Of a stretch of 64,000 nucleotides of DNA, positions 1,055-56,587 are shown one piece after another. The notes beneath the pieces were generated by a model. It ran no database searches. It had not been told where the DNA came from and saw only the letters and a program-made list of their open reading frames with translations. How positions within the stretch are numbered: the stretch's first letter is position 1; each line of letters opens with the position of its first letter. The stretch lies in assembly GCA_038064835.1 (NCBI GenBank), contig JBBTSD010000003.1:59585-123584 (forward strand), read 5' to 3'. Origin of the DNA: Patescibacteria group bacterium (GTDB taxonomy: Bacteria; Patescibacteriota; Minisyncoccia; Phycocordibacterales; UBA2100). The position numbers and the translations under genes were made by a program.

Positions 1055-3724
1055 CTACAATCCGTAAGTCCACTCGATAATCCGATAATTAGTATGCGGA
1101 GGTTCTGTTGACCCAGAGGTCGTTGTTCCAAATTTAAACCAGTTCATAAAGTCAGCGAGGTCGTCGCCAAAGGTGCGCGTCTCGAAAAGGGCGACAAAGA
1201 ACTGTTCTGCCAGCGTTCCAACAATTCCTCCGGTAAAGTTCTCTTCACTTACAGGATCAAGCCCCAACGAATGCGCAAAAGCCTCGGTCGAACTCCCTCG
1301 CACACCACGGAACAGCACGCCCCATCGCGATGCGCTCGGGTGAATGAAGCCAGAGAGATAGGTGCAGGCAGTTCCTGTGGGTGTGTATGAGGAGCTGGGG
1401 GTAATTGCGGTGGTCTGTGGCGAGCAGTACCAGCCGGCGCTGGTGATACCTGTGCTGTTTTCGCGCCCCGGTGTGCCGTAAATCGAATTGCCTGCGCTGT
1501 CTGAGGCGCTCTTGGTATAGCCATCATTGGTGTGCCACGAGGAGGAGAGCGTGCCGTCGGTGGTGCCCAGGGTGCGTTCCATTGATACAGTGCGTTCGGT
1601 AATACCTTTTTCTGGTGATGAATTAACACTGATGGTGAGCGATCCTGCGCACCAGCCACTGCAAGTGGCGACCGCGGGTGTCTGATCAACGAGTATGGTG
1701 CCATTCATAAGTCGGACTTCCTCGCCACTGTCTGACAAGGTTTCGAACGGATACTCGTATGAGTGGTCGGCGGTTGTGGTGTCTGCAGTTCGCTCGATTA
1801 GATAGATGTCGGTGTTGTTGTCTGCATTTGCTGGCGGCAGTGTGCCAGAGAGTGTGATGTTGGGTGTGCCGTCTGCGGTGATGATTGCTAGGTTACTTAT
1901 GTTGAGTGTGTAGGCGCTAAGATTCTTGAGCTCAATCCATTCGCCCTCAGCATTTGCTGTAGTACCTGCCCATGCTACTTCATTAAGTATGATCGGTTGG
2001 GTAATGGTGGTGAGCGTGACGGAAGTAGATGTTGCGGTGTTTCCTGCAGAGTCTCTGGCGACGAGCGTGAGTGTCGAGGTGGCGTTTGAGGAGAGGGTAA
2101 GGGTCGTGCTGGTCGCAGTGGTTGATGCCAGCGCTGTTTCTCCCACATATATCTGATGCTCTGCTGCATCACTGTCATCATTCCATGTTGCAGTGACGGT
2201 GTTTCCTGGGACAAGACAGAACAATGTTGAAAGGGATAAATCACACTCTGTGATGGTGAGTGTGGGGGTAGATGGTGGTGTGGTGTCGGGGGCTGGGGTG
2301 GGTGGTGGTTCTGGTTCTGCTGGTGGCGCAGGTGGAGTTTCTGGCGTGGGAGTTGGCTCGGGCTCAGGTGTGGGTGCGGGCGTTGTTTGACTCCCTGAAG
2401 ATGTGGGTGGTGTATAGGGACTTCCTCCACCACCACTCCCACCCCATGCGCCATCGCCTGCGGTGAATCCCGTTGGGGGTGGTGCTGGGATGGGAAGTGG
2501 TGCGACAAGGAGTGGAGCGGTGGGTACGGGGATAGATGCAACGGGGACAAGTAGTGGTGGAGTGGGAGTGTATGGTATCTCGTCTCTGGTAGTGGGCGCA
2601 GTGGCTGGGGTGGGTGTTGGGCTGGTGGTGGGATTCTCTTCCAAGACAGGGAAACCGGTGCTTGGTTGTTGTGGTCCTGATTCGGTTGCAAATGGTACTG
2701 GTGTGGTTTCGGCACCACCGTCAAGAGCTGTGATTGCTGATGCTGATTGATTTTTGGAAAGACCTGCAATGCGATTACCCAGGAGATTTACCAGGTGTCC
2801 GCCCACTGTCATGAGGGGTTCAGCGATGTTACTTCCCACACGGTGTGCGAGCGCAAGTACGGGTGCGGCGACTTGCCCTGCTGGGTCACCGACAAGGAAT
2901 GCGACCTTCTTGGCGTAGTATGCGGCGGTGCTTTCTGGTGGTGGGATGCATGGTTGGCTGGTATCACGGGTTGGTTCTGCTTCAAGTCGTGAGAGCAGGA
3001 AGGCAATGGTGCCTGCGATATCGGTCGGTCGTTCGGCAAGGTAGGTGGTGCTGATGCCGTGGCCTGCCCATTCGCTTCCCACTTCGGTGGGGTTGCGGGG
3101 GATGCTGGTGTTTGCAGGAAGTGGTTGAGGATAGCCGGATTCTTTTGCTGTTTGGCGTACTTCTGCAATGACTGCGTCGTTTGCATTGGTGAGGTACTTT
3201 CCGTGTCCTGCCACATAGCTTGCGGGGGTGGCTATGTTGTATACCGCAAGTGATTTGGCAGGCACACCTCGTTTGATGAGGTAGTCGTACAGAGCGTTTG
3301 CATAGAAAGTGCCCTGCGAGTGACCGAGTATTAGTATCTTTTGCGTCTTCACCTCTTGCGCCAGTTGTTTGGTGATGGTGAGTAGGTCGAAGTCTTCCTC
3401 GGTCTTCCCTTCTGACTCCCAGGTTTTTTGTAGCATTGACTTCAGTACATCGCCGATGCCGCCGAGGTGGGTGGGGTTGTGAGCAAGTTTTACCGGAACC
3501 AAACCGGTTGTTTGCGGGACACGAGCCCAAAGTTCTGCTTGAATTTTCTCAGCATCTACCTTGGCTTTGTCGTATTCAGTAAAAATCCCATTTATGTAGA
3601 CGACAGTCTCCTTGTTGGTACTACAAGTATCTTCTGAGGCGACAATATATAGTGGCGTCGAGAGCAGAAAAATTAATATTCCTAAAACTGTGCCACCCGC
3701 CAAGCAAGAAACTTTTCGGTTCAT
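1055..3724 (-). CDS. Large secreted multidomain protein: N-terminal signal/TM, alpha/beta-hydrolase (lipase-type GHSQG), Pro/Thr-rich linker, Ig/Fn3-like region and a lamin-tail domain (LTD).
   Basis: The 901-aa ORF contains ILILGHSQGTFYA, a PTPEPEPTPTP low-complexity linker, and LNEVAWAGTTANAEGEWIELKN (LTD signature). The start is probably at MNRKVS after an internal Met. Confidence 0.7.
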   Translation of the reverse strand: MNRKVSCLAGGTVLGILIFLLSTPLYIVASEDTCSTNKETVVYINGIFTEYDKAKVDAEKIQAELWARVPQTTGLVPVKLAHNPTHLGGIGDVLKSMLQKTWESEGKTEEDFDLLTITKQLAQEVKTQKILILGHSQGTFYANALYDYLIKRGVPAKSLAVYNIATPASYVAGHGKYLTNANDAVIAEVRQTAKESGYPQPLPANTSIPRNPTEVGSEWAGHGISTTYLAERPTDIAGTIAFLLSRLEAEPTRDTSQPCIPPPESTAAYYAKKVAFLVGDPAGQVAAPVLALAHRVGSNIAEPLMTVGGHLVNLLGNRIAGLSKNQSASAITALDGGAETTPVPFATESGPQQPSTGFPVLEENPTTSPTPTPATAPTTRDEIPYTPTPPLLVPVASIPVPTAPLLVAPLPIPAPPPTGFTAGDGAWGGSGGGGSPYTPPTSSGSQTTPAPTPEPEPTPTPETPPAPPAEPEPPPTPAPDTTPPSTPTLTITECDLSLSTLFCLVPGNTVTATWNDDSDAAEHQIYVGETALASTTATSTTLTLSSNATSTLTLVARDSAGNTATSTSVTLTTITQPIILNEVAWAGTTANAEGEWIELKNLSAYTLNISNLAIITADGTPNITLSGTLPPANADNNTDIYLIERTADTTTADHSYEYPFETLSDSGEEVRLMNGTILVDQTPAVATCSGWCAGSLTISVNSSPEKGITERTVSMERTLGTTDGTLSSSWHTNDGYTKSASDSAGNSIYGTPGRENSTGITSAGWYCSPQTTAITPSSSYTPTGTACTYLSGFIHPSASRWGVLFRGVRGSSTEAFAHSLGLDPVSEENFTGGIVGTLAEQFFVALFETRTFGDDLADFMNWFKFGTTTSGSTEPPHTNYRIIEWTYGL

Positions 3725-3731
3725 AAGCAAC

Positions 3732-4451
3732 CTAATCATCCAAACTACCGAACTGCACATCGCAGTCTAAAGGCTTGTGTCGATTGAAATTAGGGTTCCC
3801 ATTTCTTGCATATCGATTTGTATCAGAATGAGCTTTTTTGCGATCGTCATTGTTTAGAACCTGTGATTCCACTTCTCCAGTAAGAGCTTGTACTATTTTG
3901 TAATGCTCACTCCCAAGGCTGTTCCCCAAATCCATTTCTTCGCGAGTCCACTGTTGAAGTGGCTTCCTCGGAAGAAGAGTCATGTCCGTTTCATGCAACT
4001 TGTCCAGACAAGAACCTGCCCGTACATACTCATATATTGCACTGTCTAAAGTAGTTCCATTGAAAACATCAGTAAAAAAGCTCTGCAACGCCTGGGCATA
4101 CTGCAACTGCGCAGCACGGATTTTGGCAGACTCGGGGTGGCGACGCCAGATTTCCAATTCCACATCATCCCGTACGCCGTTGTTATTTACATCAATTCCC
4201 GCGACAGTCTTGTTGTTCTTTTTTGCATCTGGCGCAGGTGGCAAGTTCTTTCCCATCACCATGTCCATGGTTACTTTGCGTGCATGGATTCTCTCTACTG
4301 CTTTGGGTGCGATATACCATTTGTATACCATTATCAGTACTCCAATGCCGTACAGCACTGCACAAACAATCAAAATCCACTTGAGAACTTTTTTTGTTTT
4401 CACCCATGCACTCACCTGGACCGACGGATCCGCAGATAACAGATGATTCAT
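3732..4451 (-). CDS. Hypothetical membrane-anchored protein (single N-terminal TM).
   Basis: 239-aa ORF with a hydrophobic segment ILIVCAVLYGIGVLIMVY. No recognisable domain. Confidence 0.45.
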   Translation of the reverse strand: MNHLLSADPSVQVSAWVKTKKVLKWILIVCAVLYGIGVLIMVYKWYIAPKAVERIHARKVTMDMVMGKNLPPAPDAKKNNKTVAGIDVNNNGVRDDVELEIWRRHPESAKIRAAQLQYAQALQSFFTDVFNGTTLDSAIYEYVRAGSCLDKLHETDMTLLPRKPLQQWTREEMDLGNSLGSEHYKIVQALTGEVESQVLNNDDRKKAHSDTNRYARNGNPNFNRHKPLDCDVQFGSLDD

Positions 4452-11398: not shown

Positions 11399-11938
11399 CT
11401 ATTCGATAATCAACTTTCCCACCATGCCATTTTGGCGATGTTTGCCAACCGAGCAATAGTACTCGAACGAACCTGTCTTGTCGGCTACAAAAGTAACCGA
11501 GGTCTTGGTCCCTGGGCGCACTTGATCGGTCTTTGCTTTGAATTCATCGACAACCCAGTCGTGAAATCCCTGCGTGCTCTCAAAATTAATGGTTACGGTC
11601 TCTCCTTTCTTCACGCGAATTTCTTTCTGTGAGAACAGGAAATCTTTTCCGGTGATTGCAATCGCTTTGGCAGTACCTGTAGTCTCAACCGACGCAGCTT
11701 TTGTGTCCGCTGCGCCACTTGTCATAACACCCACCTCTGCATCCTTCAATGCACCTGCATCTACATCAACCATCGCGTCCGCATGCTCTTCCACCACTTC
11801 ATCGCCATCTGTATCCATCATGACTGTGGTGTCAACAACAGGAGCTTCAGGCGCAGGCGCCGTCTTCTTTCCTTGAATCATGAACCAACCCAGACCGGCA
11901 ACAACAACCAACAACACTAATGCCATTACTCCTTTCAT
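11399..11938 (-). CDS. Cupredoxin (plastocyanin/pseudoazurin-like blue copper protein) with an N-terminal anchor.
   Basis: Type-1 Cu ligand pattern: His in FHDWVV, then YYCSVGKHRQNGMVGKL (Cys-His-Met). Confidence 0.7.
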   Translation of the reverse strand: MKGVMALVLLVVVAGLGWFMIQGKKTAPAPEAPVVDTTVMMDTDGDEVVEEHADAMVDVDAGALKDAEVGVMTSGAADTKAASVETTGTAKAIAITGKDFLFSQKEIRVKKGETVTINFESTQGFHDWVVDEFKAKTDQVRPGTKTSVTFVADKTGSFEYYCSVGKHRQNGMVGKLIIE

Positions 11939-13919: not shown

Positions 13920-14933
13920 TCATAGTGCTTCCACAATCCGAGGCTTGGTGAGTCGTGGCATGAGCGGTGTATACCCTCGTCCAAATGCTTCTTCAGGAAG
14001 CCCGCATGCTCTTTTGATGGCGATGTCGCGATCAAAATAGTTGCGTGACAAATCTTTGCGCTTCACTCCTGCACGCCGCAATTCGCGACCAAATGCCCAA
14101 GGGTGAAGTGGCACTGGATAATCACTCCCATACACGAGCCGTTTCTGCACCACAGCATCTCCAATAGATGTCAGGAGCCGCGGTTTACGATGCGCGGCCG
14201 CCATGCCCGATACATCCAAGTACAGATTGGGATATTCCTGGACCAGACGACTCATCTCGGCGAAATGCGTGTAGTCTTCGCGAAATGGTTTACCGCCACA
14301 ACAGTGCGCGGCAATCACCGTAACTCCTGTTTTCAACACTGCTTCGAGGCGATCAAGTCCCGCAAAGCGCATGTCGATATTGGGCAGAGCATACTCAATA
14401 CCGATGTGAATCAGAAGCGGGATTTGCGCCTGTCGCACGCGATCATAGAATGGCAGGTTGTGCGGATCCGCCGGGTCAAACCCCATGACATTGGGAAGCC
14501 ACTTGATAAGCACTGCTCCTTCTTGCAAGCAATACTCGAGTTCGTCCATCGCATCTCGACGATAAGGATTCACCGACCCTCCAAAAAGCAATTTCCGTGA
14601 TGCGCGACAGAGCGCCGCCGTCGCCTTATTGGATACGCATTTTGGTGTGCGTGCATAGTCGGGCAGACCTTTGGAATCATAGACCGAGTCGAATGCCAGA
14701 ATTACCGCGTGATCTAGTTCTGACTCTTCGACTCGCGCAACCAGAAGCTGACGGTATTTTTCGTCTATCCGTTGCCGGTCGCGTCGCGACGAAAGATATG
14801 CTTCGCGCCAATTCAGAATACCGAGCGTATTGAGATAGGCGCTCGCTCGAAAACCCGTGCCGAACTTCGGGTGTATGTAGCCACCATTTTCTGCACAAAA
14901 CGCAAGGTGATGGCAGTGAACATCGATTATCAA
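13920..14933 (-). CDS. Amidohydrolase-2 family metal-dependent hydrolase (TIM barrel).
   Basis: MIIDVHCHH N-terminal HxH motif. 337 aa. Confidence 0.65.
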   Translation of the reverse strand: MIIDVHCHHLAFCAENGGYIHPKFGTGFRASAYLNTLGILNWREAYLSSRRDRQRIDEKYRQLLVARVEESELDHAVILAFDSVYDSKGLPDYARTPKCVSNKATAALCRASRKLLFGGSVNPYRRDAMDELEYCLQEGAVLIKWLPNVMGFDPADPHNLPFYDRVRQAQIPLLIHIGIEYALPNIDMRFAGLDRLEAVLKTGVTVIAAHCCGGKPFREDYTHFAEMSRLVQEYPNLYLDVSGMAAAHRKPRLLTSIGDAVVQKRLVYGSDYPVPLHPWAFGRELRRAGVKRKDLSRNYFDRDIAIKRACGLPEEAFGRGYTPLMPRLTKPRIVEAL

Positions 14934-16940: not shown

Positions 16941-16968
16941 TTGACATTTTCATAAAAAAGTGTATTAT
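16941..16968 (+). promoter_or_regulatory. Sigma70-like promoter (TTGACA-16-TATTAT) for the Aas-like gene.
   Basis: ctaTTGACAttttcataaaaaagtgTATTATtc. Confidence 0.5.
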
Positions 16969-17038: not shown

Positions 17039-19699
17039 ATGAAGCGATTGTTGCAATACACAATCCTGTTTCTCATCCGCCTCATCATCCCCCTGCACTA
17101 CAAAGTGCGGGTCAAAAACATCGAGGCAGTCAAAGGGCTCACGGGCGGGCTCATTATGCCCGACCACACCGCCCTCACCGATCCAGTCATTCTGATGAGC
17201 AGAATATGGAAGCACACAAAGGCTCGCCCGGTGGTCTACACCGGACAGTTCGTGAAGCATCCGTTCTTGATGAAGCTCATCGGCGCACTTCCTATGGACA
17301 GCACCTCTGACGGCAGCGGTTCATGGAAGCTGTGGAAAATTCGCAAACAGAAGAAAGCCGTGCACCACACACTCGCCGAGGAAGGTGAGAATGTGCTGAT
17401 CTATCCCTCGGGACAACTGCGCTCCGACGAATTCGAATCTCTCGGTGGTAAGTCGAGTGCCTTCGAGCTCATCAGCGAGAACACCGGCACCCCCGTGGTG
17501 CTGGTGCGTATCCGCGGCTTGCGCGGCAGTTTCCTCTCACGCTTTTACACCGGCGGTGTGCGCACGCCTGACGGCCTGCATCTCAAGGCGCTTCTCAAGG
17601 CGAATTGGATGCGCTGGCTCTTCAATCGTGTGCCAGTCACTATCGAATTCGAGCGCTTCGACACTCTGCCGAAGTTCGCTTCGGTCGACGAGTGCAATCG
17701 ATGGCTCGAGCGCTGGTATCATCAGACGCCCGACCCCGTGCCTGAAGGCCGCGAACAGTGGCAGGTGCAAGGCTTTGACTACGGTCGCAAAGCAGCCGAT
17801 CACGACAATGTCGCGATCGACTCGCGGATCGCCGCAAAGGTCATCGCTTTCATCGCCAAGGAACAGGGCGGCCGGGCGCAAGAGATTTCGCTCGACGACG
17901 AACTGATTTCGGATCTTGGCCTCGACTCGCTCACCACGATCTCACTTTACATGTGGGTCGAGGAGGAGTTTGGTCATTCGGTCGACATGAATGCACCGCT
18001 CGTCACCGTGCGCGATGTTGCCCTCGCCGCTCAAGGCGTCCTCACCGAGGTCGTCGTGGAACAGGTCGAGGAAACACCCGCACACTGGATCGAAGAAAAC
18101 CGAAAAGCCCCCGCTTCAATCCCGGGTGCTCACAACATTCCTTATGCGTTTTTGCGCACCATGCGTCGCCTTGGCCGTTCAGCCATCGCGATGGGCGACG
18201 AACGCATCGGCGGAAAATGCACGCTCACATATGGACAAGTATGCGAGCGTGGTTTGATGCTCTCGCAAATTGTTCGCAGTCTTCCTGGAAAACGAGTCGG
18301 GATTATGTTGCCTGCTTCGGCAGGTGCCGCGGTGACCGGACTGTCTGTGATGTTTGCGGGACGCGTTCCCGTCTTCCTCAATTGGACAAACGGCAGTGCC
18401 GCACTCGACGAATCAATTCGAATTGCTGGCGTGGGAGTCGTCCTCACTTCGGACGCGTTCCTCGACAAGGCGCAGTGCATGCTCTCGGACGAGACAGCCG
18501 CAAAGCTGCTCCCGCTCGAACAAGTACGCAAACAGCTCGGCCTGAAGCATCTCATCAGGGGAAAGCTGCTCTCGCGGCTTCCGACATGGATGCTTCTGCG
18601 CGTCTTGGGTGCGAACTTCAAGCGCGACGAAGATGCCGTCATTCTGTTTACCAGCGGCTCTGAGAAAGCGCCGAAAGGCGTCCGACTCACCCACCGAAAC
18701 ATTCTCTCGAATGTGCACGGCGCCCTCACCGCAATCGGCGGCGAGCCGACTGATGTGATGCTGGGCTTCTTGCCCCCGTTCCATTCGTTTGGATTGACGC
18801 TCATCAACATGCTCTGCCTCACTGGCGGCGTGAAGACAGCGTATGAACCCGACCCAAAGAAGTATCGCCGCCTCGCCAAGCAGACTCGAAAGTGGCAGGC
18901 CACCCTGATTCCCGGGACACCGGATTTCTTGAGTGGCATTCTCACTTCCGGATCAATCGAAGACTTCAAAACTGTGCGCGCATTTTTGTCGGGTGCTCAA
19001 AAGGCTCCGGCATCGCTTCGTGCATTAGTTGAGCGAGTCAATTCCGTTCTCATCGAAGGGTACGGTATCACTGAAACCGGGCCACTCATCTCGGTCAATC
19101 GAATCGGCCACCCAATGGTCGGTGTGGGGCAGCCCATACTCGACAGCGAGGTGATCTTCGTCAATCCGGCAACGCACGAAATTGTTGCCGACGAAAACGA
19201 AGGTCTTATTCTCGTCCAGGGTCCCGGCGTCTCGCCAGGATACTTGGGAGAAATGCCGTTCCCCATCCTGCATGCCTACGGCGCCGATTGGTACAATACC
19301 GGCGACCTTGGCAAAAAAATGCCGGAAGGTGACATTGTTATCACCGGCCGCCAATCGCTGTTCCTGAAATCAGGCGGCGAGATGGTGAGCATTCCGGCAA
19401 TCGAAGAAACACTTATTGGTCTCTGGCCGACAGGAGAAAACGGACCCGTAGTGACGGTCCATGGCGAAGAGCGCGACGGCCAACCGGCTCTCGTCTGCCT
19501 CTATACCACCGACGAATCCGCAACGCTTGAAAAAGCGAACGCGGCACTGAAGTCGGCGGGTCTCAGCCCACTGTCGTATGTGCGTGTCCGATGCGTCCTA
19601 CCCGAAATTCCCTTGTTGGGAACCGGCAAGACGAACCGGCGCGCACTGCCCAAGCCAACCGATGTGCTTGCAACCCAGGCACAAAGCGCTGCCGCATAA
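17039..19699 (+). CDS. Tridomain fusion of lysophospholipid acyltransferase (PlsC-type), phosphopantetheine carrier domain and acyl-activating enzyme (Aas-like acyl-ACP synthetase).
   Basis: N-terminal H-x4-D motif (PDHTALTD) and YPSGQ. Middle DLGLDSL (serine attachment site). C-terminal TSGSEKAPKGV, GYGITETGP, YNTGDLG...GR. Confidence 0.75.
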   Translation: MKRLLQYTILFLIRLIIPLHYKVRVKNIEAVKGLTGGLIMPDHTALTDPVILMSRIWKHTKARPVVYTGQFVKHPFLMKLIGALPMDSTSDGSGSWKLWKIRKQKKAVHHTLAEEGENVLIYPSGQLRSDEFESLGGKSSAFELISENTGTPVVLVRIRGLRGSFLSRFYTGGVRTPDGLHLKALLKANWMRWLFNRVPVTIEFERFDTLPKFASVDECNRWLERWYHQTPDPVPEGREQWQVQGFDYGRKAADHDNVAIDSRIAAKVIAFIAKEQGGRAQEISLDDELISDLGLDSLTTISLYMWVEEEFGHSVDMNAPLVTVRDVALAAQGVLTEVVVEQVEETPAHWIEENRKAPASIPGAHNIPYAFLRTMRRLGRSAIAMGDERIGGKCTLTYGQVCERGLMLSQIVRSLPGKRVGIMLPASAGAAVTGLSVMFAGRVPVFLNWTNGSAALDESIRIAGVGVVLTSDAFLDKAQCMLSDETAAKLLPLEQVRKQLGLKHLIRGKLLSRLPTWMLLRVLGANFKRDEDAVILFTSGSEKAPKGVRLTHRNILSNVHGALTAIGGEPTDVMLGFLPPFHSFGLTLINMLCLTGGVKTAYEPDPKKYRRLAKQTRKWQATLIPGTPDFLSGILTSGSIEDFKTVRAFLSGAQKAPASLRALVERVNSVLIEGYGITETGPLISVNRIGHPMVGVGQPILDSEVIFVNPATHEIVADENEGLILVQGPGVSPGYLGEMPFPILHAYGADWYNTGDLGKKMPEGDIVITGRQSLFLKSGGEMVSIPAIEETLIGLWPTGENGPVVTVHGEERDGQPALVCLYTTDESATLEKANAALKSAGLSPLSYVRVRCVLPEIPLLGTGKTNRRALPKPTDVLATQAQSAAA

Positions 19700-19734: not shown

Positions 19735-20970
19735 TTAATGTCCAGTACCCGCACCGGTAACTCCATCAAATATATCCGCTCGTTTTTCTCCCTCGACGGA
19801 AATGGTCCCCCAAGCACCCTTGTCGAGCCGTGCCAGCGCGTGGTCTACCAGCACATAAGTCCCGGGGATATCTGCAGTGAATTCAACAATGGCTGCACCA
19901 CCCGACGGAACAAGTGTCGTTTGTACATTCTGAAAAAGACTTCCTCCCATTTGAGCTTCGGGGTAAACCGTGTCAAATATCTCGCCGATGAGATGAAATG
20001 AGGAGATGAGGTTCACTCCACCATTCCCCACATAGACACGAACTTTTTCACCTTGGTGGAGCACGAGCCTATCTTTTGAGACTGCGCCCACTCGGCCATT
20101 GAAAACAATATATTCCGGGTTCCCTGCAAGCATCCTCCCAGCGTCAATAACCTGTAGGCCCTTAATCCCTCTGCCCCCCGCAGTGTACAACTCTCCCTGC
20201 ATCACATAGAGTTCACGATCAACCGCGGGCAAGGCAACTTTTGGCTCGACCAAAATAAGTCCGTACATACCGTGTGCCATGTGGTTTGCAACATTTGGGT
20301 GGGCACAATGGTACACATACAGACCGGGATTGAGTGCTTTGAACGAAAGTGTCTTCTCTTCACCAGGTGCAACATCAGTAACAGTTGCTCCTCCACCGGG
20401 CCCAGTAACTGCATGCAGATCAATACTATGTCTGTGCAGACTCGAAGGGTCGTTTTTCAGTTTCAATGTTACCTGATCACCCTCTCGTATACGCAGAAAT
20501 GGACCGGGTACTGTGCCCTCAAATGTCCAATAATTTACCAGGACTCCTGGCGCAACTTCTGAGAGAACTTCTTTTGCTACCAGCGCAATTTCTACTGTCG
20601 TTGTGCTAGTGCGCTCGATAGGTGCCGGCACATCCAGCGGGTCGCGCGCTATGTCCTTGACTCGTTCGAAATGCTGCAGATTCGAGAAAAATGAGAAAAT
20701 ATTTTTGAGTGGAAGCCCAGGCCCTTCAGCGGGTCCGTAGGTGTGCATCCCGAAAGGATATTGTAAATCTCTGTTCACACCGACAGGAAACCAAAAGAAA
20801 AGCATCACGCCTGCAAAAAAAGCGCCCATAAGAATCGTGTCGCGAAGTGAGTGATGCTTTCTGAGAACGAGATAGAGAAACGCCAGTGCTGCGAGACCAG
20901 CAAGCACCAGTCCAAAACCCTGGACGATTAGATAGTGCACGAGTGACCACATCTGACCAATCATTTCCAT
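19735..20970 (-). CDS. nirK: Copper-containing nitrite reductase (NirK-type two-domain multicopper oxidase) with an N-terminal 2-TM anchor.
   Basis: HSIDLHAVTG (type-1/type-2 Cu His pair), YVYHCAHPNVANHMAHGMYG (Cys/His/Met), and C-terminal VDHAL His. Confidence 0.75.
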   Translation of the reverse strand: MEMIGQMWSLVHYLIVQGFGLVLAGLAALAFLYLVLRKHHSLRDTILMGAFFAGVMLFFWFPVGVNRDLQYPFGMHTYGPAEGPGLPLKNIFSFFSNLQHFERVKDIARDPLDVPAPIERTSTTTVEIALVAKEVLSEVAPGVLVNYWTFEGTVPGPFLRIREGDQVTLKLKNDPSSLHRHSIDLHAVTGPGGGATVTDVAPGEEKTLSFKALNPGLYVYHCAHPNVANHMAHGMYGLILVEPKVALPAVDRELYVMQGELYTAGGRGIKGLQVIDAGRMLAGNPEYIVFNGRVGAVSKDRLVLHQGEKVRVYVGNGGVNLISSFHLIGEIFDTVYPEAQMGGSLFQNVQTTLVPSGGAAIVEFTADIPGTYVLVDHALARLDKGAWGTISVEGEKRADIFDGVTGAGTGH

Positions 20971-32462: not shown

Positions 32463-32492
32463 AAAAAGAAAAGCACCGTGAGGTGCTTATGC
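32463..32492 (-). terminator. Intrinsic terminator after the fic gene.
   Basis: agcacc gtga ggtgct, followed by ttttcttttt on the minus strand. Confidence 0.6.
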
Positions 32493-33047
32493 TTGTGCCT
32501 TTGGGTACCAACTACCAAAGACTTCGTTTTCAAATGCTCGAATGGCGGCATAGTACTCCTGAGCTTCCGAGTGGAGCACTATGTGCCACTTCACTCCACC
32601 GCGAACCAAGAAACTGTTCAGCAACAGGCGTGAGGTGCGCCCGTTGCCATCCACAAAAGGATGGATACACAAGAACGAATGGTGAAATTGCCAGGCGCGA
32701 TTCTTGACCCACAGATTCCAAGTTGCATCTGGTTTGTGCGGTAAAAAAGCATCCATTCGCGCCCAGGCGTTCACCCACTTTTCCATTAGGAATGGTACGC
32801 GATTGGGCGACGGCATCATGCGGCCACCCACCGTGACATCACCAGTGCGATATGATGAAGCGTGTGACGGCAACAGAATGCCCCCTACTTCTGTAGGCAG
32901 TACTAGAGACGAATGCTGTGCTCGCCCGGCGACAAACTTTGCAGCATCGAGATGCCGATCATAGAGCGGCTCGCCGGTGCAGGCTCCAATGCGCTCGATT
33001 GCGTTACTTTCCACTACATGACGGCGCAGTATATTGATGTGAGTCAC
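32487..33047 (-). CDS. Fic-family protein (class-II-like, with an N-terminal SxxIE inhibitory-type motif).
   Basis: HPFVDGNGRTSR Fic motif. ESNAIER near the N-terminus. GTG start with an AAGGAG RBS. Confidence 0.85.
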   Translation of the reverse strand: MTHINILRRHVVESNAIERIGACTGEPLYDRHLDAAKFVAGRAQHSSLVLPTEVGGILLPSHASSYRTGDVTVGGRMMPSPNRVPFLMEKWVNAWARMDAFLPHKPDATWNLWVKNRAWQFHHSFLCIHPFVDGNGRTSRLLLNSFLVRGGVKWHIVLHSEAQEYYAAIRAFENEVFGSWYPKAQA

Positions 33048-34426: not shown

Positions 34427-34598
34427 AGGGTATTTACCCTATATTGTGTCTTCGCTCGGAGAAAATAAGAGTACGCTTCGCTCCCTCTCACTTTGCTCCT
34501 CGCTAGCCACAGTAAATTTCGGCCCCGCGACATCGCGGGGCCGCTTGACACCCCATCAGTTCCACCTAGGATTCAAGCAGACAAGAAGGAGAAGCCCA

Positions 34599-36098
34599 AT
34601 GATGAACGATTATGCATGTGATGCCTTCTTCGCGGAAATGGGTCGTCTCGCGCTCGAGTTTGACGATGTCATGCTCAAAACCCGCTACAGCGACCATATG
34701 CCGACCGATGTAAGTCTTGAAAGCGCATTCTCGCGCACCGTAAAGCTCAAGATTCCTGTCGTCAGTGCCGCGATGGATACCGTCACAGAATCAAAGATGG
34801 CAATTGCACTTGCAAAGTTGGGTGGCATCGGTGTCATCCATCGCAATCTGTCTCCTGAAGAGCAAGGTCTCCATGTACATAGTGTAAAGCGTCATTTGAA
34901 CGGCCGCATCGAAAAACCGATCACTGTCTGTGAGACCGAAACGATTCAGGAAATCCTAAATCGCCGCAAAGCTATGAAACATTCGTTCCACAGCTTCCCC
35001 GTCATCAACAACTACGGAAAAGTGGTTGGCATTCTCACCAGTAATGATTTTGACTTTTGCGAAAATCCGAACGCGCTCGTGAAAGATGTGATGACTGCCG
35101 GACTGGTCAGCGCGAGTCCCGCAATGACTCTAGCCGATGCACTTACCCACATGCGCACCTACAAGAAAAAGGTGTTGCCGCTGGTTGATTCCGACGGACT
35201 TTTGCATGGCATGTATGTCTTCTCGGATGTGCGTCGAATCATCCATGGCTCGTCGCCGATGTTTAATCTTGATCAAAACGGACGCCTACGAGTCGCCGCG
35301 GCAATCGGAGTCGGTGACGACGCGCGTAAGCGCATGGAGCATTTCCCTGCCGATTTGGACGCCGTTGTTATCGACACGGCCCACGGCGATACGAAGGCCG
35401 CGCTTGAGACACTGAAATTCATCAAGCGGAGCGGTGCAGCCTGCGATGTCATTGTAGGTAATGTGACCGAAGCTGATTCAGCAATGCGACTCATCTACGC
35501 CGGTGCTGATGGAATCAAAGTGGGCCAAGGTCCCGGGTCCATTTGCACCACACGCATCGTTGCCGGTGTGGGCTGTCCTCAGCTCACTGCGGTATACCAA
35601 TGCGCAAAGGCCGCTCGCGCCAGTATGACACCCGTCTGCGCAGATGGTGGCATTGTGACTTCAGGCCACATCCCCAAGGCAATCGGTGCAGGTGCATCAT
35701 GCGTGATGCTCGGTCGGCTTCTTGCCGGTTGTGACGAATCACCGGGAGAAGTGGTCGTTCATCACAACTCCCGCGTCAAGAAATACCGTGGTATGGGATC
35801 ACTTGGCGCCATGCAAGAACGCGGTGGTCGTGAACGCTACGACCAGGGCGACACACCAGCAAACAAATTGGTACCTGAAGGTATCGAAGGCGCCGTCCCC
35901 TATACAGGATCACTCGAGACGGTCTTGCACCAATTACTCGGAGGTCTCCGGGCCGGCATGGGATACACTGGTGCGCGCGATATTTCTGAATTGCAGTATG
36001 TTGCCGACTTCCACCGCATCACGCCCGTGGGTCTTCAAATTTCCCACCCGCATGATGTAATGATGGTTAGTGACGCGCCGAATTACACACGCAGATAA
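34599..36098 (+). CDS. guaB: IMP dehydrogenase.
   Basis: GIGVIHRNLS, CBS pair, and the catalytic loop GQGPGSICTTRIVAGVGCPQ. The start is at ATG 34599 after an AAGGAG RBS. Confidence 0.9.
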   Translation: MMNDYACDAFFAEMGRLALEFDDVMLKTRYSDHMPTDVSLESAFSRTVKLKIPVVSAAMDTVTESKMAIALAKLGGIGVIHRNLSPEEQGLHVHSVKRHLNGRIEKPITVCETETIQEILNRRKAMKHSFHSFPVINNYGKVVGILTSNDFDFCENPNALVKDVMTAGLVSASPAMTLADALTHMRTYKKKVLPLVDSDGLLHGMYVFSDVRRIIHGSSPMFNLDQNGRLRVAAAIGVGDDARKRMEHFPADLDAVVIDTAHGDTKAALETLKFIKRSGAACDVIVGNVTEADSAMRLIYAGADGIKVGQGPGSICTTRIVAGVGCPQLTAVYQCAKAARASMTPVCADGGIVTSGHIPKAIGAGASCVMLGRLLAGCDESPGEVVVHHNSRVKKYRGMGSLGAMQERGGRERYDQGDTPANKLVPEGIEGAVPYTGSLETVLHQLLGGLRAGMGYTGARDISELQYVADFHRITPVGLQISHPHDVMMVSDAPNYTRR

Positions 36099-47092: not shown

Positions 47093-47701
47093 TCATGTGC
47101 TCTTTTCTTCCAATGGAGGTTCTGGCACAGGTGGATTTTTTAACGAAAGAAGCCACTGGGAAAGTAGTATTGCTATGAGAAGCCAGTACATGCCCACCAG
47201 ATACCCGCCCAGAACATCGCTCAGATAATGAACGCCAAAGTAGACTCGGCTAAACCCGACCGCAAGCACTGTAAGTAACCCGAGAAAGGCAACAAGGAAC
47301 TTGTAAATCTGACTCTGGGCGCGACTAATTAAGAAGTACATTAAAAATCCGTAAAATACCATTGCCACAGTTGCGTGCCCACTGGGAAATGAAAAAGAGT
47401 TTTCTACGAACAACGAAATGTCGGGGCGGGGTCTTTGAACATACTCCTTAACAATAACGCTAAAGATCGTACTTCCCACAACAGAAATCCAGAGTGGAAA
47501 AATGTATGTCCTGTTGTGCCACAAATACAAAGCCAAAGAAGCCACTACAGTGGCTGCAAGGATGAATCGTACATCCGCCAGTAAAGTGACACCCGTAAAA
47601 ATATAGGTCGCTATATCCGAGTCCCGCAATGCAAGCACCATGTGGGAAAAATAATAATCCATCTCTCTCAAGACTTCCCAAGCGACCTGCATAAATGGCA
47701 T
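47093..47701 (-). CDS. PAP2-family phosphatase.
   Basis: KEYVQRPRP, SFPSGHAT and SRVYFGVHYLSDV motifs. The start was trimmed so that it does not read through the tRNA-Leu. Confidence 0.8.
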   Translation of the reverse strand: MPFMQVAWEVLREMDYYFSHMVLALRDSDIATYIFTGVTLLADVRFILAATVVASLALYLWHNRTYIFPLWISVVGSTIFSVIVKEYVQRPRPDISLFVENSFSFPSGHATVAMVFYGFLMYFLISRAQSQIYKFLVAFLGLLTVLAVGFSRVYFGVHYLSDVLGGYLVGMYWLLIAILLSQWLLSLKNPPVPEPPLEEKST

Positions 47702-47778
47702 GAGTGTTTCTATGAAAACATGGTAGCACGGGGAAAAGGCGTCATAAATGCCTTGTGGCAGCATCAATACCTGTATAA

Positions 47779-47861
47779 AATGGCTATGGGGCGAGTGTCG
47801 GAATGGTAGACGACCGCGACTCAAAATCGCGTGGCTGTAAGGCCGTGAGGGTTCGAGTCCC
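47779..47861 (+). tRNA. tRNA-Leu (anticodon CAA) with a long variable arm.
   Basis: Acceptor GGGCGAG/CTCGCCC, anticodon loop CUCAAAA, T-loop GGTTCGAGTCC. Confidence 0.8.
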
Positions 47862-47990
47862 TCCTCGCCCACATCTCAAAGAAAACTGTCGGTTTAATAA
47901 GACTGTTATCGCTTTCAAAAAAGTGAAACCTGTGAAATTGCCGTACTAAATTAAGCATGGTATGGTCTCGCTGGAAAAGAGAGGTGAGAC

Positions 47991-48854
47991 ATGCGCTCAT
48001 TCAATCAGCTTCTACATGCACAATGGCGCGCAGGACGCGTCCTCTGTATCGCTCTGGATCCTGTGCCAGGCAAAATCCCACCACACATCACGCTAAATGC
48101 TCCCGAGTGCGGTGAGGCATCACTTGTTTTCAACACTGAAATCATCGATGCGACTGCCGACTTTGCCGCGGCATATAAACTCAACAGCGCGTATTACGAG
48201 GCGATGGGACGCACTGGGTGGAACGCACTTGTACGCACCGTAGGCTATATCCAGGGGCGCTACCCCAGAATTCCCATCATTCTTGACGCCAAACGCGGTG
48301 ATGTACTGCACACCAGCGAGCGATATGCCGAGGCGGCGTTCAAACGAATTGGTGTAGATGCGGTGACGGTACACCCCTATTGTGGGCGAGCAAGTCTTGA
48401 GCCGTTTCTGTCACGCCCAGACAAAGGCGTATTTGTGCTCTGCCGGACATCGGATGATAGCGCTCTCCAAACCATGTTGGTGCAGTCACCGTATGCGAAA
48501 AAGCCGATCCCGTTTTTTGCTCATGTCGCACATGATGTAGCAGCTCAGTGGAATCAAAATGGTAATTGTGGGCTTGTCGTAGGTGCCACCCACGCCGCCG
48601 ATATCCTGACGGCAGACTTGGCGAGTGGAAATAGCTTGCCGTTGCTTGTTCCTGGTGCAGGCGCCCAAGGTGCTGACCTACGCGAAGCGCTTCGGCCGCT
48701 TCCTTTTTCTAGCACTAGGAAATTTCTGCTTGTGTCAGGTCGAAGCATCATCTATGCATCACCTGACCGAGACTTTGCCCTCAAGGCACACGAAGCCGCT
48801 CACAGATTGCACAACGAAGTGCATACGCACTTAGCTGGATTTCTTTGCGGATGA
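47991..48854 (+). CDS. pyrF: Orotidine-5'-phosphate decarboxylase (long type).
   Basis: IILDAKRGDV plus the overall fold signature. Confidence 0.8.
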   Translation: MRSFNQLLHAQWRAGRVLCIALDPVPGKIPPHITLNAPECGEASLVFNTEIIDATADFAAAYKLNSAYYEAMGRTGWNALVRTVGYIQGRYPRIPIILDAKRGDVLHTSERYAEAAFKRIGVDAVTVHPYCGRASLEPFLSRPDKGVFVLCRTSDDSALQTMLVQSPYAKKPIPFFAHVAHDVAAQWNQNGNCGLVVGATHAADILTADLASGNSLPLLVPGAGAQGADLREALRPLPFSSTRKFLLVSGRSIIYASPDRDFALKAHEAAHRLHNEVHTHLAGFLCG

Positions 48855-52081: not shown

Positions 52082-52152
52082 CGGGCCCACGAGGACTCGA
52101 ACCTCGGACTTTCGTTTTGGAGACGAAAATTTTACCACTAAACTATAGGCCC
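52082..52152 (-). tRNA. tRNA-Trp (anticodon CCA).
   Basis: Acceptor GGGCCTA/TGGGCCC, anticodon loop CUCCAAA, T-loop GGTTCGAGTCC. Confidence 0.8.
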
Positions 52153-52809
52153 ATATTTTGTCAAAAATCCACGGCCAATGGCCAGAACCTGACGCATAAT
52201 CATCTTATCATTGTAGACGACTTGGATACAGCCCTGATACCCCTCGCGCAAACTTTGTCTGCTTTCGATTTTAATATAGGGCCGCATAAATTGCTTCAAA
52301 GAGATGCCTGTTACTTCAGACCAAAATTTGGTCTGAGCCCTAGCATTGTGGTACCCATGCAAGTGAATGCATGCCCGGAACTTTGACTCGTCAAGAGCAA
52401 AGCTCCGTCGAAGCAAGTTCAAAAATAACGCGATAAGTGCTGGTTCAGAGTTCATAAAAGCAAAGTTGCCTCGGTTGTTGTAAAGCTTGCTACCCTCGCA
52501 CATATACAACAAGGCACATAATACCCTCTCTGTGGTCTCGTCGGGGCTAAAATTTTTCAATACCGCCCACGCAAAAATGTCTGCCTCTTTTTCTTTCTGT
52601 CGAGTTCTTGCATAATGGGTCTCTTGAGCTGCGAGCTGTCCTTTGGTGCAAAGCCCTCTGATACGATTCTGTGCAGAGTCTGACAAAACGACATCGCGAA
52701 CCCATACAGAAACAGTACTTTTTGCTGCCCCCAGTAAAAGACTGATTTCTTTCATTGAGTAGCCTTTTACTCGCAAGGCCCGCGCTTTGTGTTTGTCCCG
52801 TAGTCTCAT
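52138..52809 (-). CDS. HTH protein with a degenerate LAGLIDADG-like motif (possible homing-endonuclease relic) inserted between rpmG and tRNA-Trp.
   Basis: GYSMKEISLLLGAAKSTVSVWVRD (HTH). LCALLYMCEGSKLY resembles LAGLIDADG (E in place of the second Asp). Its 3' end overlaps the tRNA-Trp by 15 nt. Confidence 0.35.
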   Translation of the reverse strand: MRLRDKHKARALRVKGYSMKEISLLLGAAKSTVSVWVRDVVLSDSAQNRIRGLCTKGQLAAQETHYARTRQKEKEADIFAWAVLKNFSPDETTERVLCALLYMCEGSKLYNNRGNFAFMNSEPALIALFLNLLRRSFALDESKFRACIHLHGYHNARAQTKFWSEVTGISLKQFMRPYIKIESRQSLREGYQGCIQVVYNDKMIMRQVLAIGRGFLTKYGPIV

Positions 52810-52914
52810 ATCGAACCTTGACTTAAAGTTACATAAAGGTCGGTTTATGACAAGGACGCAAGGTGGAAAACCTTGCTCAAAGGGCAATGGAGATACCTTC
52901 GTCTGTTCAAAACT

Positions 52915-53118: not shown

Positions 53119-53583
53119 CTAGCGCAAGGATCCAGGTGGGGCGGCGAATGACCCTACCCGTGATGCATTACACCCGATACTGTTCCAGGGACCAAACTTC
53201 TGTTCGTCGACCAAGGTCTTCATCAAGGTATCGACACCCAGCCAAGCGCCTAAAATCACTACCAAACCCATGGCGACACTAGAAAGTACTTTGCGAGCCT
53301 TTCCCGCCTTGCCGGCATCGCCCCCACCCATAGTGGTGGAGGTCATATACATGAGCCCTGCATACGCAAAAGTGAGTGCTGAAAGTATCACCGCGATGAC
53401 AATTCCCGTATTGAGCAGGTTGGACCCGAGCTGAACAAGGTGACAAAATCCGCAGTTAGGACCATCACATTCGACGGGCACAATTTGGCTGGGCGCTCCG
53501 CCGGTCAAATCGCCTTGAGCACCAACGCCCACAGGCACAACAAGAAACACAAGACAGAGGCTGAGCAAGATAAATCGGCGCAT
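53119..53583 (-). CDS. Small secreted membrane protein with a signal peptide, a Cys-rich segment and two TM helices (VirB2/TrbC-like topology).
   Basis: MRRFILLSLCLVFLVVPVGVGAQ, then two TM helices. A TGgTGTACAAT -10 element lies 8 nt before the ATG. Confidence 0.35.
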   Translation of the reverse strand: MRRFILLSLCLVFLVVPVGVGAQGDLTGGAPSQIVPVECDGPNCGFCHLVQLGSNLLNTGIVIAVILSALTFAYAGLMYMTSTTMGGGDAGKAGKARKVLSSVAMGLVVILGAWLGVDTLMKTLVDEQKFGPWNSIGCNASRVGSFAAPPGSLR

Positions 53584-53668
53584 AAATTCATTGTACACCA
53601 AAACACAGAGGTTTTTCGGGTACACACAGTGTAGTGAGTTTGCACTTGTAGTTTGGCAGGAATATAGT

Positions 53669-53911
53669 ATGCAAGGAATCTGCGAGGATGCTATGTTACA
53701 TGAACTCACAGTATACGAAAAGCTGGCACGAAATCATGTGCCGACGGATCGACCCTACGCCGAAGTTTGTTTCAAGTGTCCAATAATGCTCTCCGGAGAA
53801 TTTTCCGGTGGGTCATCCCTGTGCATGCTGTGTCTTTTGGCACAAATGGCACGAAGAGAGCGCATCATCAAGGAACGTTTGTTTTCCAACAAAACACAGG
53901 AAAGACAGTAG
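53669..53911 (+). CDS. Small CxxC...CxxC zinc-ribbon-like hypothetical protein.
   Basis: CFKCP...CMLC. AGGA RBS. Followed by a gcgcgc gaaa gcgcgc hairpin. Confidence 0.3.
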   Translation: MQGICEDAMLHELTVYEKLARNHVPTDRPYAEVCFKCPIMLSGEFSGGSSLCMLCLLAQMARRERIIKERLFSNKTQERQ

Positions 53912-55589: not shown

Positions 55590-56492
55590 CTACACAACTA
55601 CCTCTTCCACGAGCGCTTCACTGAGAATCTCGCCAAATACCTTTGGCCCATATTGGAAGAAATGGGTACCTACTTGCACAGCAGCTGCACCTGCCCGCAC
55701 CATGTCTCGCACATCGGCACCGCATGAGATGCCGCCCACACCAACCACTCGCACCCTACCAGGAAGCGCGGCGCGCAATTGCGCAACCTGGCCAAGCGCA
55801 ACAGGCTTCAGCACCTTGCCGCTCACACCTGCAAGCCCATTGCCAGAAATGACTGGCTTTCCTCCCCAATAGGCAATGCCATTTGGCAGTGTGTTCGTAG
55901 CGACCACCGCATCGACTATCTCATTCATGATTGGTGACTTTGCCACTCGACGCAGAAGTCCTGGGTCGCTGTATGGTGACAGCTTGAGCGACAACGGGAC
56001 AAGATCCTGTGTATAATTCCACACATTCACCACGGTCTGCTCAAGAAAATCAGGATCGAACGAAGGTATGATCTTTTGCTCTGCACTATCGCCATCCCAT
56101 ACATTCGGACAGCCTAAATTTAATTCGATTGCGTCCGCACCACCTTCGAGTGCGATCTCGGCCAGACTCACATATTCTCCGATACTAAAGCCAGCAAGGC
56201 TCACCGTAAGCTCCTTGCCTGCATCGCGCACCTTGCGCCCGATTTCTGGCAAATGCTTTCGATAGTACTCAGAACCGGGATTCCGAAGGCCAACACGGTT
56301 CAAGGCAAATGAGCCATCGTCCGACACCCAAAAAGTGGGCTCTGGTTCGCCTTGTCGCTCGATCATGGTGATAGAGCCCAGCACCACATCCGTGACTGGT
56401 GTTTTGAGCAACGGCTCAACATCGCTCACCACCTTGACTATGCCGGCGGCGTTCATGATGCGTATATCGTCAATGCGCATTTGTATCCCCAT
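55590..56492 (-). CDS. pyrD: Dihydroorotate dehydrogenase, class 1 catalytic subunit.
   Basis: IELNLGCPNV and GAAAVQVGT. The start is uncertain. Confidence 0.8.
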   Translation of the reverse strand: MGIQMRIDDIRIMNAAGIVKVVSDVEPLLKTPVTDVVLGSITMIERQGEPEPTFWVSDDGSFALNRVGLRNPGSEYYRKHLPEIGRKVRDAGKELTVSLAGFSIGEYVSLAEIALEGGADAIELNLGCPNVWDGDSAEQKIIPSFDPDFLEQTVVNVWNYTQDLVPLSLKLSPYSDPGLLRRVAKSPIMNEIVDAVVATNTLPNGIAYWGGKPVISGNGLAGVSGKVLKPVALGQVAQLRAALPGRVRVVGVGGISCGADVRDMVRAGAAAVQVGTHFFQYGPKVFGEILSEALVEEVVV

Positions 56493-56587
56493 TCGTTTTC
56501 CTTGTCCGCCGGGCACTATATAGGAGGCATAGATGCAGGGCAACAGAAAATGACTTGCGCAGGCAAGTCATCCATTAGCTTTTTCGG

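Follow-up and report, generated by a model that had tools for sequence, protein, structure and literature searches.

A Patescibacteria protein that joins an Aas-like acyltransferase, an acyl carrier domain, and an acyl-ACP synthetase: a candidate self-contained enzyme for lysophospholipid re-acylation

Aas of Escherichia coli is the model for bacterial lysophospholipid repair. The enzyme loads acyl groups onto the holo form of the acyl carrier protein (ACP), which gives acyl-ACP, and then acylates lysophospholipids delivered by LplT (PMC11416262), and the acyl-ACP that it makes reaches only its own acyltransferase domain (PMC6167442). In Chlamydia trachomatis, the same two catalytic activities are divided between two proteins, LpaT (CT775) and AasC (CT776), and acyl-ACP is set free into the pool of the cell; AasC yields acyl-ACP only and not acyl-CoA (PMC6167442). 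A 2024 study of LplT and Aas treated Aas as strictly two-domain and termed even the LplT-Aas fusions uncharacterized (PMC11416262), and our full-text search of the literature found no description of an Aas with an embedded ACP. We analyzed a protein of this kind that is encoded in a 64-kb stretch of contig JBBTSD010000003.1 from a Patescibacteria group bacterium (hereafter, the window, meaning the whole stretch of 64,000 nucleotides). With a probability of roughly 60%, we read it as a single-polypeptide Aas-type lysophospholipid re-acylation system that includes, as a domain of its own, the ACP for which E. coli Aas relies on the cell.

The gene is an open reading frame (ORF) of 886 aa with an ATG start (17039 to 19699, forward strand), in which an acyltransferase (AT), a carrier domain, and an acyl-activating enzyme follow one another (Table 1). 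The tri-domain fusion that the initial annotation had read from the sequence is present as claimed: all of the quoted motifs occur in the translation, and Pfam searches for the PlsC, PP-binding, and AMP-binding families confirmed the order of the domains, each above its gathering score (PF01553 Acyltransferase, aa 22 to 156, 29.3 bits against a gathering score of 23; PF00550 PP-binding, aa 279 to 318, 25.8 bits against 20.8; PF00501 AMP-binding, aa 387 to 736, E = 1.2e-52). An exact match, GenBank MEK7628207.1 on a 129-kb contig, is named "AMP-binding protein [Patescibacteria group bacterium]". Regarding the start, the stop-to-stop frame is open from 17009, and the ATG at 17039 is the earliest possible start codon. 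A shorter database version of the protein (P0001; 847 aa) begins at Met40. We favored the long, 886-aa start because an invariant Tyr21 lies upstream of that next Met and because homologues align over their full length from residue 1 to 14 onward.

Table 1. Features of the tri-domain gene and its product; positions are those of the window, and residues (aa) are those of the 886-aa protein
Feature	Window position	Strand	Residues and remarks
Promoter-like site, TTGACA-16 nt-TATTAT	16941..16968	+	11/12 consensus matches, 71 nt 5' of the ATG; consensus match only
Complete ORF (AT-ACP-AMP)	17039..19699	+	886 aa plus stop; identical to GenBank MEK7628207.1
Acyltransferase domain (lysophospholipid acyltransferase [LPLAT]/PlsC-type, Aas-like)	17039..17728	+	aa 1-230, including N-terminal hydrophobic helix aa 2-20
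HX4D catalytic motif, HTALTD (H43-T-A-L-T-D48)	17165..17182	+	aa 43-48; H43 invariant, D48 in at least 90% of 41 homologues
Motif III variant, YPSG (within YPSGQ, aa 122-126)	17402..17413	+	aa 122-125; P123 and G125 invariant, Y122 at least 90%
Linker 1	17729..17821	+	aa 231-261; lower model confidence
Acyl carrier domain	17822..18043	+	aa 262-335; helices 262-276, 297-311, 324-331
DLGLDSL motif	17912..17932	+	aa 292-298; L293, D296, S297 invariant
Ser297 codon, predicted phosphopantetheine attachment site	17927..17929	+	in DLGLDSL; aligned to AcpP Ser36
Linker 2	18044..18136	+	aa 336-366; coil in model; low conservation (29% identity to P0002)
Aas-type AMP-forming acyl-ACP synthetase (ANL) domain	18137..19696	+	aa 367-886
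A3 motif, TSGSEKAPKG		+	aa 538-547; within TSGSEKAPKGV, aa 538-548
GYGITE		+	aa 674-679; within GYGITETGP, aa 674-682
YNTGDLG		+	aa 752-758; motif in translation
A10 Lys864 (GTGKT)	19628-19630	+	Lys864 invariant

Several lines of evidence bore out the proposal that the segment in the middle of the protein is a true carrier domain. Besides passing the Pfam gathering score, the middle 91 aa had AcpP as their best NCBIfam match (TIGR00517; E = 6e-10), with 38.9 bits, i.e., below the equivalog cut-off of 70.45. A carrier profile built from 41 homologues aligned with essentially the whole of E. coli AcpP (aa 3 to 75 of 78; E = 1.3e-18), placing the conserved Ser on AcpP Ser36, and the DLGxDSL motif is common to both. 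Ser297 was invariant in these 41 diverse homologues. In an AlphaFold2 model computed from the 41-sequence alignment (mean predicted local distance difference test [pLDDT] score, 87.8; predicted template modeling [pTM] score, 0.81), the segment was modeled as helices, Ser297 opens helix II, and coil segments of lower confidence (about aa 228 to 261 and 332 to 366) flank the carrier region. Unlike AcpP, the domain is embedded in a multidomain enzyme. Two linkers of about 30 residues each would suit a carrier that moves back and forth from one catalytic center to the other. The identity of the protein to P0002, its orthologue in another Parcubacteria genome, was 55% in the carrier, 63% in the AT, 55 to 68% over the domains overall, and 29% in linker 2. 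The linkers are the parts of the protein with the least conservation. That the carrier has kept nearly as much identity as the AT, and linker 2 has not, argues for a functional tethered carrier.

The C-terminal 520 aa matched Aas-type NCBIfam models over the whole adenylating region (PRK08633, E = 1e-105; E. coli Aas model, E = 8e-59), and PRK06334, the model of the chlamydial AasC-type ligase, matched aa 380 to 870 (E = 1.8e-82). An adenylating (A) domain of about 520 aa would probably leave no room for a large insertion of the kind specific to fatty acyl-AMP ligases (FAALs). The initial annotation had stated that E. coli Aas has no internal carrier domain and had treated an alignment throughout with ordinary Aas as evidence against its reading. 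A family comparison by hhalign covered the adenylating domain only (query 359 to 877, Aas 198 to 714; E = 3.8e-80), the AT aligned separately, and the carrier segment had no match in E. coli Aas or in fused LplT-Aas proteins. The statement on E. coli Aas thus holds, and the protein does not align with ordinary Aas along its whole length. E. coli Aas and the window protein have in common an LPLAT at the N terminus, followed by an Aas-type adenylating domain at the C terminus (28% identity over about 500 residues in the A domain). In contrast, Aas has 719 aa, no carrier, and uses cellular holo-ACP in trans (PMC11416262), whereas the window protein has about 135 extra residues (aa 231 to 366) that comprise the AcpP-like domain and the two linkers.

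Regarding the acyltransferase, the best NCBIfam match of the N-terminal 255 aa was the AT part of the Aas model PRK08633 (E = 8e-9), ahead of the generic PlsC model TIGR00530 (E = 0.012). A profile of the AT from the 41 homologues aligned with E. coli Aas aa 2 to 149 (E = 1.4e-12), with motifs I to IV in register: motif I, pnHpaliDP in the family and PNHVSFIDG in E. coli Aas; the Aas-style motif II (xPxD/P), lpvpd and VPLDP; motif III, iYPSGr and IFPEGR; and motif IV, VvlvRirGL..fsr and VIPVRIEGAELTHFSR. The YPSG of motif III thus aligns with FPEG in E. coli Aas, Ser taking the place of Glu throughout the subfamily. This replacement is a signature of the subfamily, and it leaves room for another acceptor.

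An exhaustive search of 1.84 billion cluster representatives (clusters at 50% identity) with the acyltransferase-carrier half (aa 1 to 345) gave 747 matching clusters at E ≤ 1e-3, of which 419 remained at E ≤ 1e-10; the family is thus real, although of modest size. Among the homologues that keep the domain order over their full length were the Parcubacteria protein P0002 (63% identity), a clade at about 53% identity (P0003 to P0014), and a protein from an alphaproteobacterial metagenome-assembled genome (P0015). Others were found in Chlamydiota, Planctomycetota, Verrucomicrobiota/Lentisphaerae, Acidobacteriota, Desulfobacterota, Bacteroidota, Myxococcota, Pseudomonadota, and one Peribacteria genome. 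Within the candidate phyla radiation (CPR), the occurrences seen were the source lineage, P0002, and the Peribacteria genome only. While C. trachomatis has the split system, environmental Chlamydiota carry the tri-domain form. The architecture was cleanly AT-ACP-AMP in 46 of 55 ORFs at species-representative loci, the remainder being ORF-calling artifacts or split genes, and D-x3-DS[L/I] was kept in most tri-domain ORFs of species-representative genomes. Across the conservation set (41 homologues; 27 to 63% identity), H43, P123, G125, L293, D296, S297, the A3/A5 residues (with Y675, G676, T678, and E679), and K864 were invariant. The three-domain assignment lies far beyond chance, and homologues over the full length, down to 27% identity, keep the domain order and the catalytic residues.

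About one-quarter of the top 150 matches were fusions of 1,270 to 1,360 aa in which a major facilitator superfamily (MFS) domain precedes the AT, ACP, and acyl-ACP synthetase (AAS) domains (MFS-AT-ACP-AAS; the match begins near residue 405 to 445). Two of these fusions matched E. coli LplT, and an LplT-like MFS gene lies directly upstream of the tri-domain gene in four loci. Fusion or adjacency to an MFS transporter, LplT-like in several cases, is seen in part of the subfamily; the window itself contains no LplT homologue. The fused LplT-Aas proteins (MFS-AT-AAS, about 1,130 aa; PRK08633 and PRK06814) gave the best NCBIfam matches for the AT and A domains; they differ from the window protein in having the MFS domain and no carrier, and they form a separate clade in the A-domain tree. 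In that neighbor-joining tree, all of the carrier-containing proteins fell into one clade, apart from E. coli Aas, MFS-AT-AAS, and stand-alone synthetases, which suggests that the carrier was inserted once in evolution. We regard the carrier-containing proteins as an Aas subfamily in its own right, apparently monophyletic and provided with its own ACP; they are already abundant in databases, where they have generic names.

Clustering of the ORFs within ±8 kb of 54 loci recovered only a chlamydial synteny (cysS, lysS, and fabF) and the LplT-like MFS gene in the four loci. No neighbor gene was conserved across phyla at these loci, and a dedicated phosphopantetheinyl transferase (PPTase) partner gene was thus unsupported.

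Many matches of 336 to 420 aa consist of the AT-ACP half only (e.g., P0154, P0160, P0179, P0186, and P0198), and at one chlamydial locus (L066, 812 to 3521) AT-ACP and AAS are two adjacent ORFs. The AT-ACP-only proteins may be split enzymes, or fragments due to contig ends or frameshifts. Permuted three-domain proteins (P0098 to P0120; about 22 to 27% identity) were ordered either ACP-AMP-(AT) (about 930 aa) or AMP-ACP-AT (about 830 to 907 aa). One of them, P0115 (1,403 aa), has the three domains plus a reductase domain and resembles ElbD; it is a distant match, with about 25% identity over 45% of the window query. The ElbD-type myxobacterial ether-lipid enzyme, reportedly described by Lorenzen et al. 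in 2014, is said to have the order ligase-ACP-reductase-AGPAT (1-acylglycerol-3-phosphate acyltransferase). ElbD-type enzymes are like the window protein in that one chain unites a PlsC-type acyltransferase with an adenylating domain and a carrier in cis, and unlike it in that the window protein has the order AT-ACP-ligase and no reductase (NAD_binding_4) domain. It seems that built-in carriers beside acyltransferases of the PlsC type originated on more than one occasion.

Regarding substrates, acyl transfer in cis, and physiological role, we infer the following cycle. The C-terminal Aas-type domain would convert a free long-chain fatty acid and ATP to acyl-AMP, from which the internal carrier, held between its two linkers, would receive the acyl group on the thiol of the phosphopantetheine attached to Ser297. 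The carrier would then swing to the N-terminal, membrane-associated AT, and the HX4D dyad would transfer the acyl group to a lysolipid acceptor, most probably a lysophospholipid, to give a diacyl lipid. For the host, the cycle would provide salvage of free fatty acids and lysolipids. Since the acyl-ACP of E. coli Aas is channeled only to its own AT domain, covalent fusion would hard-wire an existing arrangement, and a natural subfamily with a covalent carrier would confirm the channeling logic of E. coli Aas. Unlike the separate chlamydial proteins, a single chain that includes the carrier should prevent acyl-ACP release. With the tri-domain protein, the shuttling of a carrier between an adenylating and a membrane acyltransferase domain could also be studied in a simpler system made up of one protein.

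According to Probst et al. (PMC7242380), lipid synthesis is incomplete in CPR genomes, and CPR-sized cells are enriched in lysolipids. In the source Patescibacterium, whose lineage has been reported to lack fatty-acid synthesis and every ACP-dependent enzyme, the horizontally acquired protein might, although this is unlikely, be the main or only route from scavenged free fatty acids and lysolipids to diacyl membrane lipids. It would then be a self-contained, ACP-dependent enzyme for "membrane assembly from parts" that needs only ATP and one PPTase, and it would give a molecular handle on the long-open question of the origin of CPR membranes. For CPR/Patescibacteria, the gene is a candidate for lipid salvage. 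The initial annotation had gone further in two respects. It proposed a unit that works without a separate ACP, which stands insofar as the carrier is built in; however, a PPTase and coenzyme A would still be needed. It also tied the fusion to scavenging in streamlined lineages, and here the candidacy for fatty-acid and lysolipid salvage stands, but the fusion is not special to such lineages. Most members of the subfamily belong to organisms that should have fatty-acid synthesis, and the chlamydial loci have fabF nearby. The rarity of the family in CPR and its frequency in bacteria that should have type II fatty-acid synthesis temper the scavenging idea. The importance of the gene is further limited in that the architecture already occurs in several hundred database clusters, automatically annotated as "AMP-binding protein" or "Aas", which belong mostly to organisms with no need to scavenge.

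Several observations weigh against the re-acylation reading. Searches of the six-frame ORFs (≥40 aa) of the window by phmmer with E. coli proteins (fab, acpP, acpS, plsX, and lplT) returned nothing at E < 0.1 except the carrier domain, and no lipid or PPTase families (including PF01648) were found in Pfam scans of 40 window ORFs except a PAP2 phosphatase. The window thus holds no PPTase, no LplT-like transporter, and no lipid gene other than PAP2, although 64 kb says little about the whole genome. CPR genomes have been reported to lack ACP-processing enzymes, ACP synthase, and ACP-using enzymes (PMC7242380). In a genome that lacks a PPTase, the carrier would remain in its apo form, which would prevent the cycle. 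The bit scores of the NCBIfam Aas models were far under the curated cut-offs (PRK08043, 199.6 against 886; PRK08633, 354.4 against 1,221; PRK06814, 305.9 against 1,349), and no NCBIfam model claims the AT-ACP-AMP architecture or reaches its cut-off on the window protein. The similarity of the AT to E. coli Aas is modest (E = 1e-12 by profile and 7e-3 pairwise), motif III carries Ser where Glu is usual, which bears on the lysophospholipid acceptor, and the trees are neighbor-joining trees without support values. The PAP2-family phosphatase (membrane lipid phosphatase superfamily; 47093 to 47872, reverse strand) was the only other lipid-related Pfam match in the window.

Some of these observations would suit a protein that shares the chemistry up to acyl-S-ACP and then serves another acceptor, i.e., glycerol 3-phosphate or lysophosphatidic acid (phosphatidate synthesis de novo in place of PlsX/Y/C), or a lysolipid other than a phospholipid, such as a lyso-betaine lipid or lyso-aminolipid, instead of repairing lysophosphatidylethanolamine or lysophosphatidylglycerol. 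The AT is a divergent LPLAT, with 29 bits to PF01553, and has YPSG rather than FPEG as its motif III; LplT is absent from the window, and the loci share no neighbor gene across phyla. Furthermore, the CPR-attributed lysolipids of one aquifer all had betaine head groups (PMC7242380). Nevertheless, the AT matches the Aas acyltransferase model better than generic PlsC (E = 8e-9 against 0.012), motifs II and IV align with those of Aas, and many members are fused or adjacent to MFS proteins, several of which are demonstrably LplT-like. We therefore consider a different acceptor unlikely.

The composition of the gene sets it apart from its surroundings. Its G+C content is 0.573, and its G+C content at third codon positions (GC3) is 0.666, compared with 0.509 ± 0.032 for 38 other window genes (about 4.9 standard deviations above the mean). 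We rejected a chimeric assembly or mis-binning as the source of this composition on two grounds: an assembly made independently from a different sequencing run (L087) is 100% identical over 14,028 bp that include the gene and its neighbors, and the orthologue lies on another Parcubacteria contig, which is 344 kb long. By the first of these, the fusion itself is no assembly artifact either. P0002 was the sister of the window protein in the family tree; the P0003 to P0013 clade was sister to this pair, and P0015 (labeled Alphaproteobacteria) came next. The relatives in these latter clades occur in non-CPR-like contexts with genes for thiolase, enoyl-CoA hydratase, UbiD, type I secretion, and ATP synthase; these loci have 59 to 63% G+C, and the tri-domain gene there matches its surroundings. 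The P0002 orthologue is somewhat richer in G+C than its 44%-G+C locus. Given that the gene is a compositional outlier and that its nearest relatives are in high-G+C non-CPR genomes, these data suggest horizontal acquisition from a donor of higher G+C content, which was probably proteobacterial. One acquisition by an ancestor of the two Parcubacteria, followed by vertical maintenance, is the simplest reading, and the gene would then be an example of metabolic gain by horizontal transfer in CPR/Patescibacteria.

An Amidohydro_2 gene (window 13920 to 14933, reverse strand; L002 12757 to 13794; 47% identity over 323 aa) is the sole neighbor common to both Parcubacteria loci. In L002 it adjoins the tri-domain gene; in the window, 2 kb separate the two.

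A foreign gene of this kind might be a recent passenger whose carrier could not be activated for want of a PPTase, the protein being inactive or having a carrier-independent side activity only. The GC3 anomaly, the absence of a PPTase from the window, the reported lack of ACP synthase in CPR genomes (PMC7242380), and the rarity of the family in CPR are all compatible with this explanation, as is an isolated transcription unit: a ygjP-like gene runs divergently from the tri-domain gene and a nirK-like gene runs toward it, so that it is probably monocistronic. However, the ORF is intact and retains the catalytic residues and the carrier Ser, and the missing PPTase concerns only 64 kb of the genome. 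The Parcubacteria orthologue, at 63% identity, has a conserved carrier (55%), diverged linkers, and the homologous Amidohydro_2 neighbor; a conserved carrier between diverged linkers argues for vertical maintenance under purifying selection since acquisition. An inactive passenger is thus improbable.

Finally, the notion that the A and carrier domains form a FAAL-type loading module for a specialized lipid or polyketide-like product (e.g., an ElbD-type ether lipid or a lipopeptide starter) can draw on FAAL-like domains fused to lysophospholipid acyltransferases, which have been mentioned in passing without functional assignment (PMC8460268), and on the existence of the other permutations (ACP-AMP-[AT], AMP-ACP-AT, and P0115 with its reductase), but it is very hard to sustain given that the A domain matches Aas models over the full length of the models (E = 1e-105) and clusters with Aas relatives rather than with the permuted proteins (22 to 27% identity) and that no polyketide synthase, nonribosomal peptide synthetase, or reductase genes lie near the window locus or related loci.

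Several other genes in the window deserve a brief description. Directly downstream of the tri-domain gene, on the reverse strand (19735 to 20970), is a gene for a 411-aa two-cupredoxin protein with Cu-oxidase_3 and Cu-oxidase_2 Pfam matches, which is NirK-like by eye. A 179-aa plastocyanin/azurin-type copper protein is encoded 8 kb away (11399 to 11938, reverse strand); the two are copper redox proteins on a Patescibacteria contig. A 901-aa ORF (1055 to 3760, reverse strand) has a weak Lamin-tail-domain match and, in its middle, a long low-complexity part rich in Pro and Thr; its product is a probable surface protein. The window's strongest excursion of GC and AT skew (2001 to 4000; GC skew, +0.21; AT skew, −0.21) falls on this ORF, of which the gene-position index had no exact copy. 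Pyrimidine synthesis is represented by pyrF (OMPdecase; 47991 to 48854, forward strand) and pyrD (DHO_dh; 55590 to 56543, reverse strand), and the ORFs that adjoin them resemble pyrE and pyrC by eye, with no Pfam match at E ≤ 1e-5; an IMP dehydrogenase gene lies at 34446 to 36098. The remaining observations, all weak or unverified and all on the reverse strand, are a Fic/DOC-domain protein (32487 to 33047), a 249-aa ORF with weak helix-turn-helix/terminase-like matches (52138 to 52887), and a 196-aa ORF with a weak match to a type IV secretion pilin (53119 to 53709).

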